Positions 54,836 through 61,017 are shown, numbered from the stretch's first letter. The stretch is DNA of 64,000 nt from Gammaproteobacteria bacterium (GCA_021773275.1 JAJFKJ010000030.1:143580-207579), one strand, 5' to 3'. Notes: generated from the sequence alone by a model not told the origin. Made by a program: numbers and translations.

Positions 54836-55675
54836 CTATTGCTGTGCAGCCAACCAAGTATTGTGCATCAGCACAGCAACGGTCATCGGGCCAACACCAC
54901 CAGGGACGGGGGTGATAAAGCCAGCGCGTTTAGCAGCTTCTGCAAATTCAACATCGCCTTTAATGTCGCCATTATCGGTGCGATTAATACCTACATCGAT
55001 GACGACGCTACCGGGCTTGATCCATTCGCCTTTAATCAGGCCTACTTTGCCAGTAGCAGCGATTAGAATATCAGCTTGTTTTACATACTCAGGTAAATCT
55101 TGAGTGAAACGATGGCAATCGGTGACGGTAGCGCCTTGCAATAAAAGCTCTAAAATCATCGGCCGGCCAACAATATTTGATGCGCCCACCACCACAACGT
55201 GCTTACCCGTGACCTCAACACCAATTGACTCAAGCATCAACATAATGCCGTAAGGGGTGCAAGGGCGCAGAGCAGGGCGGCGCTGGGTCAAACGGCCGAG
55301 ATTATACGGGTGAAAACCATCAACATCTTTTTTCGGGTTGATGCGCTCGACGATATTATCTTGGTTGATATGCCGCGGTAGTGGCAGCTGCACCAAAATG
55401 CCATCGACTTCGTTGTTATTATTGAGTTCATCGATCAGGCTGGTGAGCTCTTCTTCGGTGGTGTTCTCAGGGAGTGTTTGCACATGGGAGTCAATGCCAA
55501 TTTTTTTCGCAGCTGTAGCTTTGCGTTTGACATACAAACCAGATGCAGGATTATCGCCGACTAATACGACGACTAAACTGGGCGCGCGTTTATTTGTTTG
55601 CTGTTTGATTTTATCAGCAATCCCACTTAATAATTTGTCGGCGATGGCCTTGCCATCAATTACTTGTGCACTCAT
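54836..55675 (-). CDS. folD: Bifunctional methylenetetrahydrofolate dehydrogenase/cyclohydrolase
   Basis: [17 protein letters not shown], GxGxxVG (GASNIVGRP) and [14 protein letters not shown]. Confidence 0.95.
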
Positions 55676-55717
55676 GCGGGGTATTATACCGGAAATTTAC
55701 TGTAATAGAGCAGGGGA

Positions 55718-55782
55718 TCGCCCCCTTTTGTAAAGGGGCCAGCTGCAGTTTGCTGCGGCGAGGGTTTTACTGCCACTGCTTA
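55718..55782. repeat. REP-like double-hairpin element, copy C
   Basis: CGCCCCCTTTTGTAAAGGGGCC hairpin + CAGCTGCAG..CTGCGGCG + AGGGTTTTA. Degenerate relative to copies A and B. Confidence 0.5.
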
Positions 55783-56327
55783 ACTGCGTTTTCAGCAATT
55801 TCATTCACCGGCCGTGCGATAAGTCCGCTTTGCGATAGCGTGATTTCATACGCGGCGCCATCAAGCATCGGCGCGTAAACAGCGCTGCCATACATGGCAT
55901 CTAGCCCAGGCACCCAACGTTGATAGCGTTTTAAGGCTTGCCATAGATCAAGGCCGGGTGATTGCGAGAGCGCATGGACAGTGCGTGGTTGAGCCAGCTC
56001 GTAGGCAATGTCATGGTAACGCCCAGCGACACGATCTAGTCGATACATGGCATCAAAACCTAACAAATTACTGCTGGCCTTCCATTTAATCACGCGGGCA
56101 TCAAGTTGCCATTCATCGCCGTGTAATACATACATTTGATTATCGCGGTTTTCGCATTGCAGTGCTGCTTCAAACGTTTCATTATGTAAGTTTTTAAAAA
56201 CGAGCAAACACACGGGTTGCTCAAACGTTAAACGCGAGTAAATTAAAAAATTGCTGAATACTAAAAATGCACCGGCTGCAATGAGTAGCAAAAAGCCCCA
56301 GCGAAAAATTTTAATGTTACGTTTCAT
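55767..56327 (-). CDS. Hypothetical membrane-anchored protein, 186 aa
   Basis: N-terminal TM (FRWGFLLLIAAGAFLVF). No recognised motif. Confidence 0.4.
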   Translation of the reverse strand: MKRNIKIFRWGFLLLIAAGAFLVFSNFLIYSRLTFEQPVCLLVFKNLHNETFEAALQCENRDNQMYVLHGDEWQLDARVIKWKASSNLLGFDAMYRLDRVAGRYHDIAYELAQPRTVHALSQSPGLDLWQALKRYQRWVPGLDAMYGSAVYAPMLDGAAYEITLSQSGLIARPVNEIAENAVKQWQ

Positions 56328-56692
56328 TGTTCTGCACTTAAAGTTTTAGAAAAATAGGGGCCAATTTCATTAATTTCTAACGATAGCTGCAACTGCAAGA
56401 CTTCGAGTGAATTTGCAAAGTAAGCAGTAAGCGATTCCATCAAAGCTGCGCAAGTTTCTTGTAAGACTTGCGGTGTTCTTCCTGACAGCACCCTAATCGA
56501 AACAAACACAAAAGCGTTTTTGTCATCACCGTTACCGACAACAAAAACAGGGCGTGAAACCGCGCGGCTTTGACAAGACTCCAGTTGAGTGGGGAGTTTT
56601 TTTTCTAATATGAGGTGCAATTGTGCCAGCAAGTCACGCAGGTCTTCCTTTTCAAGAATGTTATCACTGTATTCTAACGTTAAAAGTGGCAT
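56324..56692 (-). CDS. 5-carboxymethyl-2-hydroxymuconate isomerase-like (tautomerase superfamily) protein
   Basis: MPLLTLEYSDNI.. N-terminus (catalytic Pro1 context). Length ~122 aa and overall pattern match CHMI/HpaF-family proteins. Confidence 0.55.
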   Translation of the reverse strand: MPLLTLEYSDNILEKEDLRDLLAQLHLILEKKLPTQLESCQSRAVSRPVFVVGNGDDKNAFVFVSIRVLSGRTPQVLQETCAALMESLTAYFANSLEVLQLQLSLEINEIGPYFSKTLSAEQ

Positions 56693-56832
56693 GGCAGCTC
56701 CTTGGTTGGGGTGTATGACCGTATTATCGCATTCATATCAATAATGTACAAATTCCCCCCATTTGAGGGGGTTACAGGGCAGGTTGTTTAACTTATCATA
56801 AGTGCCAGTTATGCAGAAGCAGGAGTAATACA

Positions 56833-57549
56833 ATGGGCAAACAAGAACTGACATACACACAGGCGCGCAAAATTTATATTCAAAGGCTACCGAATGACCA
56901 TGGTGATGGTACGGCAATTGCCAATCTGACAAGAAATTATATTGGTTTTGCAGAAGCTAATGCGGCGGTCTCTAGGATTAATGCTAAGCAACGCTTGGCA
57001 CTTAGGGGTCTGTTTATTAAATTTGCAAGCCTGCTTGAGCATGCTCCAGAAATTACCACACAACAGATTAATGGTTTTGTGGAGAATCTTTATCAACAGG
57101 CTTTAGTCTATGAAAGACAAATCAAAGACTTGCCTGAAGCATCTGATGCTGAAACGCTTAATACAACAAGACGCGAGCTTGCGGCTATTGTTGCGCCTTT
57201 TTGTGATGGTAAAAATACTGAGCAAACAAGCATAGCAAATGACTTGTTAACAAAAATTGGGGCACCAACATTGGTCAGTTTCAAGCGAGAAGACAGTGGT
57301 AAATCTTATGGTCTTATCGGTATGGCTATTTTTATCACGATTGCCGGAGGAGTGCTTTTAGGCTTGTCTCTAGGAACGGATATTATTCCAGACATACAGT
57401 CACTTTGGGAAGATGGTTCATCGCCTTGTCCTGACTCAGCTGCAACCGCTGCACCTACAGGCTCAATGTTGATCGATGAGCTCTACGGAAGCAAGGCCCT
57501 TGAGCAGATAACAGCCGCGATTAGTGCGACCCCTGTGCTAGGCGTTTGA
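56833..57549 (+). CDS. Hypothetical protein with C-proximal TM segment, 238 aa
   Basis: ORF with one hydrophobic stretch (LIGMAIFITIAGGVLLGLSL). Sits directly upstream of tRNA-Pro. No motif. Confidence 0.4.
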   Translation: MGKQELTYTQARKIYIQRLPNDHGDGTAIANLTRNYIGFAEANAAVSRINAKQRLALRGLFIKFASLLEHAPEITTQQINGFVENLYQQALVYERQIKDLPEASDAETLNTTRRELAAIVAPFCDGKNTEQTSIANDLLTKIGAPTLVSFKREDSGKSYGLIGMAIFITIAGGVLLGLSLGTDIIPDIQSLWEDGSSPCPDSAATAAPTGSMLIDELYGSKALEQITAAISATPVLGV

Positions 57550-57573
57550 CCCCATTGCGCAATCAGGTATAAT
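57546..57573 (+). promoter_or_regulatory. Candidate tRNA-Pro promoter (TTGACC-16-TATAAT)
   Basis: Consensus -35 and -10 hexamers with 16-nt spacing, ending ~10 nt before the mature tRNA 5' end. Confidence 0.55.
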
Positions 57574-57583
57574 GACGCAGATT

Positions 57584-57660
57584 CGGGGCATAGCGCAGTT
57601 TGGTAGCGCACCTGGTTTGGGACCAGGGGGTCGGGGGTTCGAATCCCTCTGCCCCGACCA
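57584..57660 (+). tRNA. tRNA-Pro (anticodon UGG)
   Basis: 77-nt cloverleaf folded by hand: acceptor CGGGGCA/TGCCCCG; D arm GCGC-AGTTTGGTA-GCGC; anticodon arm CCTGG-TTTGGGA-CCAGG (anticodon TGG); T arm GGGGG-TTCGAAT-CCCTC; discriminator A; encoded CCA. Close to E. coli tRNA-Pro(UGG). Confidence 0.9.
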
Positions 57661-57811
57661 TTTCAAAGAAGTATCACAACGTCCAAAGACATCCCTAAAG
57701 TAAAAAACTCCTCTCTTTACGAGCAGCACTCTCAACTCAAAATTAGAGGGTATACAGCAGAAATATAGTTTTTTATTTGTAATTTTTAGCTTTATATAAT
57801 AAAATTATAGA

Positions 57812-58615
57812 ATGAAAAACGAAAAAGATAAATTGCTGTTATACATAGAGCGTTTGCAGTCTCAAGGGCAGCTTAGCTTTTTGCGAAGCAGAGCGATGAA
57901 AGAGCTAGACATGGCCTATATGTCTTTCCACCAGGCCGCCAATAGGCTTATTAAAAAGGGCAAACTACAACGTCTACGGGGCGAGTTTTATGTAGTGGTT
58001 CCACCCGAGTACGCTGTTCAGGGCGCACCACCCACAGAATGGTTTATTGGCTCATTAATGGATTACCTTGAGCAAGACTATTATGTTGCTTTGCTATCTG
58101 CGGCGGGCCTGCAAGGTGCCACCCACCAGCTATCCACAGCATTTCAGATTGTAACTAATAAGGTGACTCCAGCTATTCAGGCTGGCAGAGTGCAAATTAA
58201 TTTTTTCTATAAAAAGAAAATAAATCCTGCGTATTATCAAAAAACAAAAACTAGTGGTAAGATGGTTAATGTTAGTATTCCTGAAATAACAGTGTGTGAT
58301 TTATTGCGCTATAAAAATGTAGGAAGTATAAATTTTGTTGCTACTATTTTGTGTGAAATGGGTGAAACATTAGACCCAAATACATTAATTAAACTTCTTG
58401 AAAATGATGACGTGCAAACAGCAACAGTGCAAAGACTAGGGTATTTGCTGGAGTTATTAGAAATACCTATGGATTTAACTGATCTTCACAATGCACTGTG
58501 CAGCAAAGCGCCGCAATATCACGCATTGGTGCCCGGGAGCGGAGCCGCCATTATCGAAAAAAATAAACGTTGGCATATTTTAGTCAACGAAAATGTGGAG
58601 CCAGACGAACTATGA
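57812..58615 (+). CDS. abiEi: AbiEi-family antitoxin/transcriptional regulator (type IV TA), 267 aa
   Basis: Size and position immediately upstream of, and overlapping (ATGA), a DUF1814 nucleotidyltransferase gene. N-terminal wHTH-like region, consistent with the AbiEi_4 family. Confidence 0.6.
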   Translation: MKNEKDKLLLYIERLQSQGQLSFLRSRAMKELDMAYMSFHQAANRLIKKGKLQRLRGEFYVVVPPEYAVQGAPPTEWFIGSLMDYLEQDYYVALLSAAGLQGATHQLSTAFQIVTNKVTPAIQAGRVQINFFYKKKINPAYYQKTKTSGKMVNVSIPEITVCDLLRYKNVGSINFVATILCEMGETLDPNTLIKLLENDDVQTATVQRLGYLLELLEIPMDLTDLHNALCSKAPQYHALVPGSGAAIIEKNKRWHILVNENVEPDEL

Positions 58616-59433
58616 TACCAAGACTAGATATTACAGCATGGGGTAATGTTGCCTCTTGGGTGATGCGAGATCAAATTGAGCATGACCTGGTATTGTCGCG
58701 CGCACTTTGCGAGCTGTATCAAAACCAAACCATTAAAAAGAATCTTGTATTTAGAGGTGGCACAGCACTGCATAAACTGTTTTTTGAAAAGGCAGGGCGA
58801 TTTTCAGAAGATCTAGATTTTGTGCAAGCATCACCGCAACCGATCGGGGAAACGGCAGAAGCGATTCGGGCAAGCCTAGATCACTGGTTGGGCGATCCAA
58901 AATATAAACAGAACAAAGGTAGATTTACACTCTACTATAAATTTCCTATTGAAGATTCTTCGGCTTTCAGGAAACTAAAGATCGAAATCAATACGCGTGA
59001 GCATTACCACGTTAAGCCTTATGCCAATGTCCCATTTACAGTTAAAAGCGACTGGTATAGCGGAGATTGTGAAGTGCTGACCCATCCCATCGAGGAAATT
59101 ATGGCAACCAAGCTTCGTGCACTTTATCAACGTAGCAAAGGACGAGATTTGTACGATTTTTGGTATGTGAACCAAGAAATTGGAACACTGGATATTCCGC
59201 AAACAATTGATATATTCCAACACTATATGGAAAAAGGCAACACGCCAGTCAGCAGGGCACAGTTTGAAAAAAACCTGATTGAAAAGCAGAACCACAAAGG
59301 GTTTAATGACGACATAACACCTTTATTAGCCTTACCTCAAAACCAAGCCTATGAGCCGAAAGCTGCATATGAGGTTTTGTTTGAACAATATATTCCATGT
59401 TTAAAAGGGGAGTCATGGAAGGGTGTTGGCTAG
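58612..59433 (+). CDS. abiEii: AbiEii/AbiGii-family nucleotidyltransferase toxin (DUF1814), ~273 aa
   Basis: LVFRGGTALHKLFFEKAGRFSEDLDFV, the hallmark NTase motif (GG[TS]AL...RFSEDLDF) of the AbiEii family. Start taken at MIPRLD.. overlapping the abiEi stop. Confidence 0.75.
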   Translation: MIPRLDITAWGNVASWVMRDQIEHDLVLSRALCELYQNQTIKKNLVFRGGTALHKLFFEKAGRFSEDLDFVQASPQPIGETAEAIRASLDHWLGDPKYKQNKGRFTLYYKFPIEDSSAFRKLKIEINTREHYHVKPYANVPFTVKSDWYSGDCEVLTHPIEEIMATKLRALYQRSKGRDLYDFWYVNQEIGTLDIPQTIDIFQHYMEKGNTPVSRAQFEKNLIEKQNHKGFNDDITPLLALPQNQAYEPKAAYEVLFEQYIPCLKGESWKGVG

Positions 59434-59548
59434 CTGTAACCTAAAAGGGTGGAATGGTGGTCAGCTTGTTTGTGTAATCCACAAAAAACATCAATTGGTA
59501 TATAACAAGCTTGAGGCTATTTGGGATAAAAGATAAAACCCAGAGGAG

Positions 59549-60265
59549 TTATAGGATTGAACAGCCAATTGACGTTTTATGAGAACTTATATACTCTTGA
59601 AGTTGGTGATGCCCATACTCAAAGAACATCCCACCGGAATAATCTCCAGTAAGAACTAACTTTGTTTCGTTTGTAGCAATTTTTTCAAATTCCCTGAGCA
59701 TGGCTATATGTGAACTCCCCATATAAACTTTCCACCAGACATTGCTGATATCAATCACACTGATTTTGTAATTTTTTGGGTGCATTAGAGATACGAGCTG
59801 ACGGATAGATGAAGTATTTGTTAGTTTTGCACAAACAGATTCAATATTGTCACTTTTTGCCAAATTAGAAAGGTGGTTAAAAAAATCATCATGGCGTAAA
59901 TAACTAGTCATACCAAAGCCGAATTTTCCCTCATGGAAATCTTTAAATTCATCATTCTGCCTTACACGCTTCTTCCACCACAAAAAGTCTTCGTCAATAC
60001 TGGGATAATCCTCATCTGGCTTCTTCCATTCATCAATGGTCAATTCTAGCCTTAAGCGAAGGTAATGAGTTCTATCATCAGCAATTTTGAGTAAATAAAT
60101 ATTGATTTTATTAAACCGCCGAACTTCGGGGTCGTGGTCCACCAAAAGAAGCGACGATGCTTTGGCTATGGCAGCTCCAATAAATCCCCTTTCTGTTCCC
60201 ACGGCAACATACAAACCTGTATCGACCTTCTCAAAAATCTCAAGGAGTGGACAGGGGTTCTGCAT
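59549..60265 (-). CDS. Hypothetical protein, 238 aa, inside the tRNA-Pro islet
   Basis: Uninterrupted ORF convergent with abiEii. No recognisable motif. Confidence 0.45.
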   Translation of the reverse strand: MQNPCPLLEIFEKVDTGLYVAVGTERGFIGAAIAKASSLLLVDHDPEVRRFNKINIYLLKIADDRTHYLRLRLELTIDEWKKPDEDYPSIDEDFLWWKKRVRQNDEFKDFHEGKFGFGMTSYLRHDDFFNHLSNLAKSDNIESVCAKLTNTSSIRQLVSLMHPKNYKISVIDISNVWWKVYMGSSHIAMLREFEKIATNETKLVLTGDYSGGMFFEYGHHQLQEYISSHKTSIGCSIL

Positions 60266-60801
60266 TGGGTGCCAAAAAGTGATAGTTTAAATCAACGTCT
60301 GCTTGTTTGAACTGCTCAAGCGTGGCCTTTAATGACTGACATTGGGGCATAGTGTAAGCATGTAATAAGGGTTTCATTAGATGTGTGCCTGCTTTTTAAG
60401 GCAAAGTGAGCATGATAACATAATCTGTAGGTAAAGGCAATAATTCGGTGTTCAGTGGGCATAGGTAAGCTCCTGCGAGTGGTAATGATCAGAAGAAAAA
60501 CAATAGCATGTGGGCTGCTGGGTACTGTTGATAGAGGAGTAAGTCGGCCAATAATGCTGCCCCAGTGCTGCCCCAGGAAGTTTTGATGCATTTTTTGACC
60601 GCAAGAGAGCTAGCAAATATGAAAAATGATTTTGATCTTGGGAAAGCAAGGCGTATTAACAACCATGCCCTGTATTCAAAACTATAGGGATTACACAGCA
60701 AATATTGACCAATTTTTCAATAAAAGCGATAATGAGTCTTACTGAATCGAGAGCGATAGAGCTTTATGGTTCGGGCTAAAAATGCGACCGTGACTCCATT
60801 C

Positions 60802-60843
60802 TTTGGGACCAGGGGGTCGGGGGTTCGAATCCCTCTGCCCCGA
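60802..60843 (+). repeat. 42-bp direct repeat of the tRNA-Pro 3' end (putative attR-like junction)
   Basis: TTTGGGACCAGGGGGTCGGGGGTTCGAATCCCTCTGCCCCGA is identical to 57616..57657 (anticodon loop to acceptor stem), followed by gCA instead of CCA. The 5' half of the tRNA is absent, so this is not a gene. Confidence 0.85.
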
Positions 60844-61017
60844 GCAATCACTGCAGTGCGTAGCGGTTCACTTAAGCACAAAAATCAAAAGCAATCATGA
60901 CCTTATCTCAGAGAGACAAGAGATAGGTGCAGTTGCCGTCGTTGTCGATGCAAAAAATCAAGATGCAGTACTTAACTGAGTAAATAGTGTCAAAAAACAA
61001 CCTGATCCATTTTTGTT

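Follow-up and report, generated by a model that had tools for sequence, protein, structure and literature searches.

A probable decayed integrative element, outlived by its AbiE module, at a tRNA-Pro gene of a gammaproteobacterium

In a 64,000-nt stretch of the genome of a Gammaproteobacteria bacterium (GCA_021773275.1, JAJFKJ010000030.1:143580-207579; the whole stretch is termed the window here), an islet of 3.2 kb (57661-60846) is bounded by the two copies of a repeat derived from the 3' segment of a tRNA-Pro(UGG) gene. The islet is probably what is left of a decayed site-specific integrative element, effectively a cis-mobilizable element (CIME), with an addiction/abortive-infection module of the AbiE type surviving. 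An earlier note, made by inspection without database searches, had suggested a decayed integrative element at this site. The suggestion is supported by the geometry of the repeat, the intact AbiE operon, the missing integrase, a composition unlike that of the background, and the presence of homologues both in integrase-bearing or conjugative elements and in an islet at a tRNA-Trp gene. The features of the region are listed in Table 1.

Table 1. Features of the tRNA-Pro islet, with coordinates counted from the first nucleotide of the window
Feature	Coordinates	Strand	Remarks
Promoter-like site of tRNA-Pro	57546..57573	+	TTGACC-16-TATAAT; strong sigma-70-like, judged by consensus matches only (11/12); 11 nt upstream of the tRNA
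Intact tRNA-Pro(UGG), putative integration target	57584..57660	+	ARAGORN; Rfam RF00005
attL-like copy	57616..57660	+	First base of anticodon loop to CCA end; repeat finder family D1
Imperfect inverted repeat, putative AbiEi operator	57769..57818	+	Overlaps a -10-like box and the abiEi start codon
abiEi, predicted antitoxin and transcriptional repressor	57812..58615	+	267 aa, full length; PF09407, PADLOC AbiEi
abiEii, predicted DUF1814 nucleotidyltransferase toxin	58612..59433	+	273 aa, full length, motifs I-IV; PF08843, PADLOC AbiEii
238-aa ORF, DUF7790 domain, predicted class I methyltransferase-like fold	59549..60265	-	Both the N-terminal PNE motif and the signal peptide of the family absent
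Apparent out-of-frame N-terminal remnant of the DUF7790 gene (MKPLL...NYHFLAPN)	60264..60377	-	Apparent frameshift in the Glu codon of PNE
Non-coding right arm of the islet	60378..60801	.	No gene remnant detected; no Pfam match at E<=10; no Rfam family
attR-like copy of the tRNA-Pro 3' segment	60802..60846	+	44/45 nt the same; GCA replaces CCA

The insertion site

The tRNA-Pro(UGG) gene at 57584-57660 is the sole tRNA gene found by ARAGORN across the 64-kb window. The Rfam tRNA model RF00005 gives 68.9 bits at the same position, and the two agree that the gene is intact, as had been stated in the earlier note. Its anticodon stem (57611-57615 with 57623-57627) encloses a loop at 57616-57622, as read from the sequence. 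A repeat finder identified a 45-nt direct repeat with one mismatch (57616-57660 and 60802-60846), consisting of 42 exactly matching nt followed by CCA in the first copy and GCA in the second; the exact 42-nt copy noted previously at 60802-60843 is therefore present and can be extended to 60846. The repeat spans the tRNA from the first base of its anticodon loop through its 3' end, a pattern that tyrosine integrases specific for the anticodon loop leave behind. Together with the islet it presents the arrangement of a tRNA-integrated island, in which the insert adjoins the tRNA 3' end and a direct repeat of that segment marks its far end. In Legionella, attL/attR repeats of 43-48 bp have been tabulated for tRNA-borne genomic islands, some of which are situated at tRNA-Pro (PMC3864950).

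No third copy of the 45-nt repeat was found on either strand of the whole window with up to 12 mismatches allowed. The flanks of the two copies (136 nt before, 140 nt after) resemble each other no more than shuffled controls do, so the boundaries of the repeat are sharp and identity is confined to the tRNA segment. Neither ARAGORN nor local alignment found a tRNA 5' half upstream of the attR-like copy. A degenerate 5' half or a duplicated promoter at this position was also considered and was rejected, as the local alignment was no better than with shuffled sequences.

Exact-protein look-ups of the window proteins gave matches only in short Logan contigs of run SRR15505519, which break at the repeat. 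Two of these (L001 and L002) stop at approximately 57628-57630, within the repeat; contig breaks are expected at a repeat of 42 nt if it exceeds the assembler k-mer, as is assumed here. The other end of L002 corresponds to position 60666, 136 nt before the attR-like copy, without evident reason.

The composition of the islet is atypical. Its GC content is 0.400, compared with 0.436 +/- 0.013 (minimum 0.405) in windows of the same size over positions 1-54000, and in tetranucleotide composition it lies at a distance of 0.24 from the bulk, farther out than any background window (maximum 0.225). These values support a foreign origin of the islet. The region to the right of the attR-like copy (60847-64000) is also atypical, with a GC content of 0.396 and a tetranucleotide distance of 0.222, compared with a background of 0.169 +/- 0.019. 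It includes orphan open reading frames (ORFs) of 468 aa (61018-62424, minus strand) and 136 aa (62779-63189, minus strand), neither of which has a Pfam, NCBIfam or PHROG match, and it may be additional acquired DNA, or part of another islet that continues beyond the window.

No recombinase was detected by Pfam amongst the three ORFs of the islet. The six frames of 60240-61030 contain fifteen stop-free stretches of 30 aa or more, and the ten longest gave no Pfam match at E<=10 that could represent an integrase remnant. The absence of an integrase reported in the earlier note is thus upheld for the ORFs and for the spacer pieces. Its estimate of about 530 bp of non-coding DNA applies to the right arm (60378-60801) and fails for approximately 112 nt (60264-60377), which appear to be an out-of-frame remnant of the neighbouring gene, as described below. 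Rfam revealed nothing in the islet beyond the tRNA and a sub-threshold T-arm echo in the repeat. A promoter-like TTGACC-17-GATAAT (60705-60733, plus strand) is located about 70 nt upstream of the attR-like copy and points out of the islet; its hexamers resemble those of the tRNA-Pro promoter, and the surrounding sequence is not homologous.

The AbiE operon

The two abiE genes are arranged as a bicistronic operon with an ATGA overlap at 58612-58615. This arrangement had been recognized previously, and both genes prove to be full length, with matches to Pfam and PADLOC models. The AbiEi protein matches PF09407 (AbiEi_1; 2e-22, residues 74-215) and the PADLOC AbiEi model (2.6e-75, protein residues 11-266 against model positions 6-260 of 260); the N-terminal winged helix-turn-helix of AbiEi was not detected as a separate Pfam domain. 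The AbiEii protein matches PF08843 (4.5e-41) and the PADLOC AbiEii model (1e-93). The DUF1814 family (PF08843) anticipated in the earlier note is therefore present, and in place of the AbiEi_4 family that it also named the Pfam match is to AbiEi_1.

The motifs of AbiEii have been defined as hGG (I), R..DhD (II), KLxAaxxR (III) and +DxxD (IV) (Dy et al. 2014, PMC3985639). In the window protein motif I is FRGG, with G49-G50, motif II is R63FSED67LD69, motif III is K167LRALYQR174 and motif IV is R178DLYD182. All four catalytic motifs are thus present, in agreement with the nucleotidyltransferase hallmark remarked upon earlier. No AbiEii relatives were found in IMG/VR viral contigs.

A promoter-like site (57777-57805) lies ahead of abiEi. 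It overlaps an inverted repeat with 18-nt arms (57769-57786 and 57801-57818) that are 72% complementary. Counterparts are situated at the same position in two homologous loci, with 24-nt arms of 96% complementarity in contig L087 and 22-nt arms of 86% in contig L085, and a TTTG(T/C)AA box is conserved upstream of abiEi in an alignment of eight homologous upstream regions. The operon is intact and probably autoregulated. Its activity, whether in addiction or in phage defence, is predicted from the family to which it belongs.

An apparently frameshifted DUF7790 gene

The 238-aa ORF convergent with the abiE operon lies where it had been placed previously (59549-60265, minus strand). It had been described as having no recognisable domain, which does not stand, as it matches PF25046 (DUF7790; 7.6e-19, 68.6 bits against a cut-off of 23) and its predicted structure has the Rossmann-like form of a class I methyltransferase. 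The match to NCBIfam NF047518, 'LIC_10091 family lipoprotein', is weak (41.9 bits against an equivalog cut-off of 350). The solved relative, an uncharacterised protein of Leptospira interrogans (PDB 6ULO), has a class I methyltransferase fold. No mention of DUF7790 was found in the literature.

An exhaustive HMMER search yielded 537 cluster representatives at E<=1e-3; a word-indexed homologue search had given only 2-4 proteins. Most of the listed members are approximately 320-370 aa in length, compared with 238 aa in the window, and most of the ten that were read start with a hydrophobic signal peptide. Homologues P0003 and P0004 also belong to the family, some members of which are secreted proteins of 680-750 aa in which two DUF7790 domains lie in tandem. 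Ten residues (G17, G23, R26, D43, Y68, R72, Y122, D172, S174 and N175) are invariant in 50 DUF7790 sequences, including the window copy, which suggests an enzymatic site in this uncharacterised methyltransferase-fold family. In the predicted structure GTERG (after strand 1), D43 (at the end of strand 2) and D172-x-S-N (after strand 4) would occupy the positions usual for S-adenosylmethionine binding or catalysis.

A near-invariant P-N-E motif precedes the conserved GTERGF in the family. The 238-aa ORF begins after the PNE position and so does not contain the motif, and neither a hydrophobic N-terminus nor a lipobox was seen in it. Upstream of the ORF, in another frame, is the sequence 'MKPLLHAYTMPQCQSLKATLEQFKQADVDLNYHFLAPN', which ends exactly at the ATG of the ORF, and a family hidden Markov model (HMM) built without the query aligns its FLAPN to the PN(E) positions. 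When the two frames are joined and the Glu is restored, the repaired ORF scores 263.2 bits, compared with 243.2 bits for the 238-aa ORF and 245-252 bits for controls with shuffled upstream sequence (n=20). The 238-aa ORF therefore appears, from its reading frames, to be the 3' part of a frameshifted DUF7790 gene. This is most simply read as the loss of 2 nt from the Glu codon in an ancestral gene that encoded about 276 aa, and we infer that the gene is inactive. The Logan assembly of SRR15505519 carries the identical frameshifted sequence; an independent assembly of this kind, although it may share the same reads, argues against an assembly error.

AbiE loci in other genomes

The closest AbiEii homologues are 56-81% identical to that of the window, and several are from metagenome-assembled genomes (MAGs) labelled Legionellales or Coxiellaceae. 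The most informative locus is on contig L087 (AbiEii 68% and AbiEi 59% identical, the latter over its full length). Here a tRNA-Trp gene (35-110) is followed by AbiEi-AbiEii, two orphan genes and an exact 49-nt copy of the tRNA 3' end (4223-4271), and then by a second islet comprising HigB-HTH, other genes, a nucleoside hydrolase and a 92% tRNA copy (7269-7317). No integrase is present in the L087 islets. The locus is a tandem pair of integrase-less islets, built like that of the window. A 21-nt box (4185-4205 and 7231-7251; repeat family D13) is situated just inside the right end of each L087 islet, and a 22-nt box (179-200 and 4099-4120) lies at both ends of the first. From their placement, these boxes may be arm-type recombinase sites.

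In L085 (AbiEii 74% and AbiEi 63% identical, the latter again full length), the AbiE operon starts 331 nt downstream of tRNA-Pro(GGG) and is also near cysS; a second att copy was not found within 12 kb. The housekeeping CysS proteins of the window and L085 are only 58% identical, and as the AbiE proteins are more conserved than CysS this comparison points to horizontal spread of the AbiE module. Other homologues reside in recognizable mobile elements. In L100 (59%) the element that carries AbiE has a tyrosine integrase (PF00589, 1.9e-29) as well as DUF3987, HTH_17 and two DNA methylases, and in L103 (61%) AbiE adjoins F-type TraC/TraV/TraB/TraK/TraE genes. In L091 a Phd/YefM gene is present upstream of AbiE. 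In a Legionellales MAG contig (L089, 3-4404) a partial second AbiEii and a 568-aa orphan precede a complete AbiE pair, after which come several ankyrin-repeat proteins.

Each homologous locus has a different gene beside AbiEii, variously DUF6629, an orphan 253-aa protein, DUF3800, DUF3987, a TrmB-type regulator or an SSF transporter. DUF7790 is thus not a conserved partner of AbiE. Closer relatives of the window sequences occur on short contigs from the Joint Genome Institute (JGI): a CysS (P0277) 87% identical is encoded on a contig of 14.3 kb, and AbiEi and AbiEii at 95-96% identity on one of 1.45 kb.

The tRNA-Pro locus in relatives

In a scan of Genome Taxonomy Database (GTDB) species genomes anchored on folD, the best relatives among the matches listed were 63% identical in FolD. 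Six distant gammaproteobacterial relatives (L003, L008, L020, L025, L028 and L031) have folD beside a tRNA cluster Pro(UGG)-Arg(UCU)-His-Lys(-Leu), and L097 has a Pro-Arg-His-Leu cluster. In the distant relatives tRNA-Arg directly follows tRNA-Pro, whereas the window has tRNA-Pro only, with no tRNA-Arg after the attR-like copy. Within the region 54836-57660 of the window, three lineage-specific genes (55767-57549) lie between folD and tRNA-Pro, one of which resembles 5-carboxymethyl-2-hydroxymuconate isomerase. The left-flank protein has no relatives in metagenome contigs. The exact 42-mer of the repeat is present in seven metagenome contigs, in each case as part of an intact tRNA-Pro gene inside an unrelated tRNA cluster, and it was not found in viral contigs.

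Proposed history of the islet

The history of integration that we infer from these features is as follows. An element specific for tRNA-Pro(UGG) would have entered the 3' half of the tRNA gene, with a tyrosine-recombinase crossover at the anticodon loop. The element's own copy of the 3' segment would have rebuilt tRNA-Pro, giving attL, and the original 3' segment would have been displaced 3186 nt downstream to become attR. The integrase and any transfer genes would then have been deleted, and a cargo gene, that of the DUF7790 protein with its predicted methyltransferase fold, would have been struck by a frameshift. The AbiE operon would have survived, with AbiEii as a stable toxin and AbiEi as an autoregulating antitoxin, such that loss of the operon would lead to growth arrest. 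A cell losing the operon is predicted from the family to be growth-arrested, and the module would for this reason resist both loss by excision and deletion. AbiE may also protect the cell against phage by abortive infection.

These last steps, the survival of AbiE and abortive infection, are supported for the family by published work on maintenance by AbiE and MosAT. AbiE stabilises plasmids, is found in ICEs (integrative and conjugative elements), and is a recognised abortive-infection system (PMC3985639). In ICESsuHN105, AbiE together with SezAT prevents loss of the element (PMC11062541), and MosAT has the same maintenance role in SXT (PMC2654960). CIMEs are defined, and their tandem accretion at tRNA genes described, in work that also reports that CIME-ICE tandems can transfer (PMC5704250). 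The window islet shows the trait that characterizes a CIME, having kept attL and attR and lost the genes for integration and transfer. It has the atypical composition of a tRNA-integrated element and does not have an integrase of its own. Descent from an ICE or an integrative and mobilizable element, and mobilizability by a related element, are suggested indirectly by the homologous AbiE genes of L100, with its integrase, and L103, with its tra genes.

Several observations weigh against this history. No empty-site allele and no intact parent element was found at tRNA-Pro amongst the GTDB matches listed or in the metagenome and viral contigs, and the insertion is for this reason read from structure only. 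The inverted repeat ahead of abiEi is weaker in the window (72%) than in the homologues (86-96%). The 238-aa ORF is predicted to fold confidently, with a predicted local distance difference test (pLDDT) value of 90.5, and translation could still start at its internal ATG, so that its status as a pseudogene is not proven. In tRNA-borne islands the integrase usually adjoins the tRNA. In the window, L085 and L087 it is AbiE, and not an integrase, that does so, which simple random decay would not predict; the position of abiE next to a tRNA in three independent loci leaves some room for mini-elements that are still mobile and dependent on functions supplied in trans.

Alternative explanations

The islet might accordingly still be active, as a minimal integrase-less AbiE element that depends for excision and re-integration in trans on the integrase of an ICE or phage, resident or incoming, with the same att core, AbiE at attL serving as its addiction module. 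The att copies are near-perfect (44/45 nt in the window and 49/49 in L087), the order tRNA, abiEi, abiEii recurs at three different tRNA genes, both L087 islets have the 21-nt box before the att copy at their right ends, and AbiE is more conserved than CysS across lineages; the transfer of CIME-ICE tandems is, moreover, known (PMC5704250). However, the att copies fall within tRNA sequence, with selection on the gene acting on attL and with attR needing only to be young, and the three islets cannot share one integrase specificity, because they are at different tRNAs. In addition, an excised or empty form was not observed, and no integrase is known from the 64-kb window. A still-active islet is, on this evidence, unlikely.

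A wider form of this idea, which we regard as speculative and improbable, is that AbiE-first, att-bounded, integrase-less mini-islets constitute a recurrent class of still-mobile, parasitic cassettes in Legionellales-like bacteria. Such cassettes would ride passing tRNA-specific integrases, with AbiE acting as an addiction module and also, via DNA binding by AbiEi, as a brake on excision. AbiEi has been found to modulate the excision of ICESsuHN105 (PMC11062541).

A further reading, raised in the earlier note, makes the islet one devoted to defence, and the 238-aa protein possibly a third anti-phage component acting with AbiE. A methyltransferase fold, like that of the methylases of restriction-modification systems, is predicted for the DUF7790 protein, and defence genes tend to cluster. 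AbiE is itself a recognised abortive-infection system (PMC3985639), as its PADLOC matches also indicate. The 238-aa protein nevertheless has no PADLOC or PHROG match, so that the search of this type proposed in the earlier note gave no PADLOC hit, and its gene is convergent with abiE and not co-operonic. The gene also appears frameshifted and is without the near-invariant PNE motif, and most DUF7790 members read carry signal peptides, from which they would be exported proteins. The surroundings of the family point the same way, as two homologues examined are in unrelated, non-defence neighbourhoods, a DUF7790 neighbour was found in 0/8 other AbiE contexts examined, and the neighbour of AbiEii changes from locus to locus. 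A role of this protein in defence is thus very doubtful, and decay of an integrative element remains the preferred explanation.

An identity block that begins at the anticodon loop and closes at the tRNA 3' end is classic for integrases that target tRNA genes. A partial duplication of the tRNA by recombination or replication slippage, with ordinary chromosomal genes between the copies, would account for the lack of an integrase and of an empty site, but is scarcely credible for a repeat that runs precisely from the anticodon loop to the tRNA 3' end and fits the 43-48-bp repeats of Legionella islands (PMC3864950), with unrelated flanks, atypical composition, a similar architecture with homologous cargo at tRNA-Trp (L087), and a cargo family that is carried on mobile elements (L100 and L103).

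Implications

The islet would illustrate the decay of an integrative element, in which recombination genes and cargo erode while a toxin-antitoxin (TA) module and att scars persist. The tandem islets of L087, with AbiE and HigBA as their recognisable cargo, suggest that this end-state is common in this bacterial group. For annotation, an 'AbiE defence islet' by a tRNA may be the fossil of a mobile element and not a selected defence locus, and the neighbouring 'unknown' gene appears to be a frameshifted member of a methyltransferase-fold family and not a defence partner. The scope of these points is modest, and the islet does not open a long-standing question.

Comparison with known systems

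The islet is an ordinary, though tidy, decayed mobile element, and a member of an already known type. It resembles CIMEs, as defined in streptococci (PMC5704250; ICEberg 2.0, PMC6323972), in that it keeps both att copies, has no genes for integration and transfer, and occupies the 3' end of a tRNA gene; the CIME accretion model likewise resembles L087, with its two islets in tandem. It differs in its host, a gammaproteobacterium whose AbiE relatives are labelled Legionellales/Coxiellaceae and not a Firmicute, and in being only 3.2 kb with one intact module, a TA pair, known here from sequence alone. Legionella genomic islands (LGIs; PMC3864950) share the tRNA target and repeats of 43-48 bp, sometimes with several attR copies, whereas LGIs are 30-80 kb in length and encode an integrase, a type IV secretion system and lvrRABC, all of them missing from the islet.

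Compared with LIC_10091-type DUF7790 proteins (PF25046; PDB 6ULO), the window ORF is shorter (238 aa as against approximately 320-370 aa) and is without a signal peptide/lipobox and PNE, apparently as the result of the frameshift. The operon resembles the AbiE type IV TA systems of Lactococcus lactis and Streptococcus agalactiae (PMC3985639) in its overlapping bicistronic organization, the AbiEi_1 C-terminal domain and the promoter inverted repeat. In a comparison at the level of motifs, the window AbiEii has the same residue numbers in motifs I-II as the S. agalactiae protein (G49, G50, R63, D67 and D69). The inverted repeat of the window differs in being imperfect and in overlapping the start codon.

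MosAT is homologous to AbiE. Like AbiE on ICESsuHN105 (PMC11062541) and MosAT on SXT (PMC2654960), the islet has a TA pair on a site-specific element, where such a pair counteracts loss. In contrast with the maintenance modules of ICEs, the element in the window is almost gone, so AbiE would now maintain only itself.

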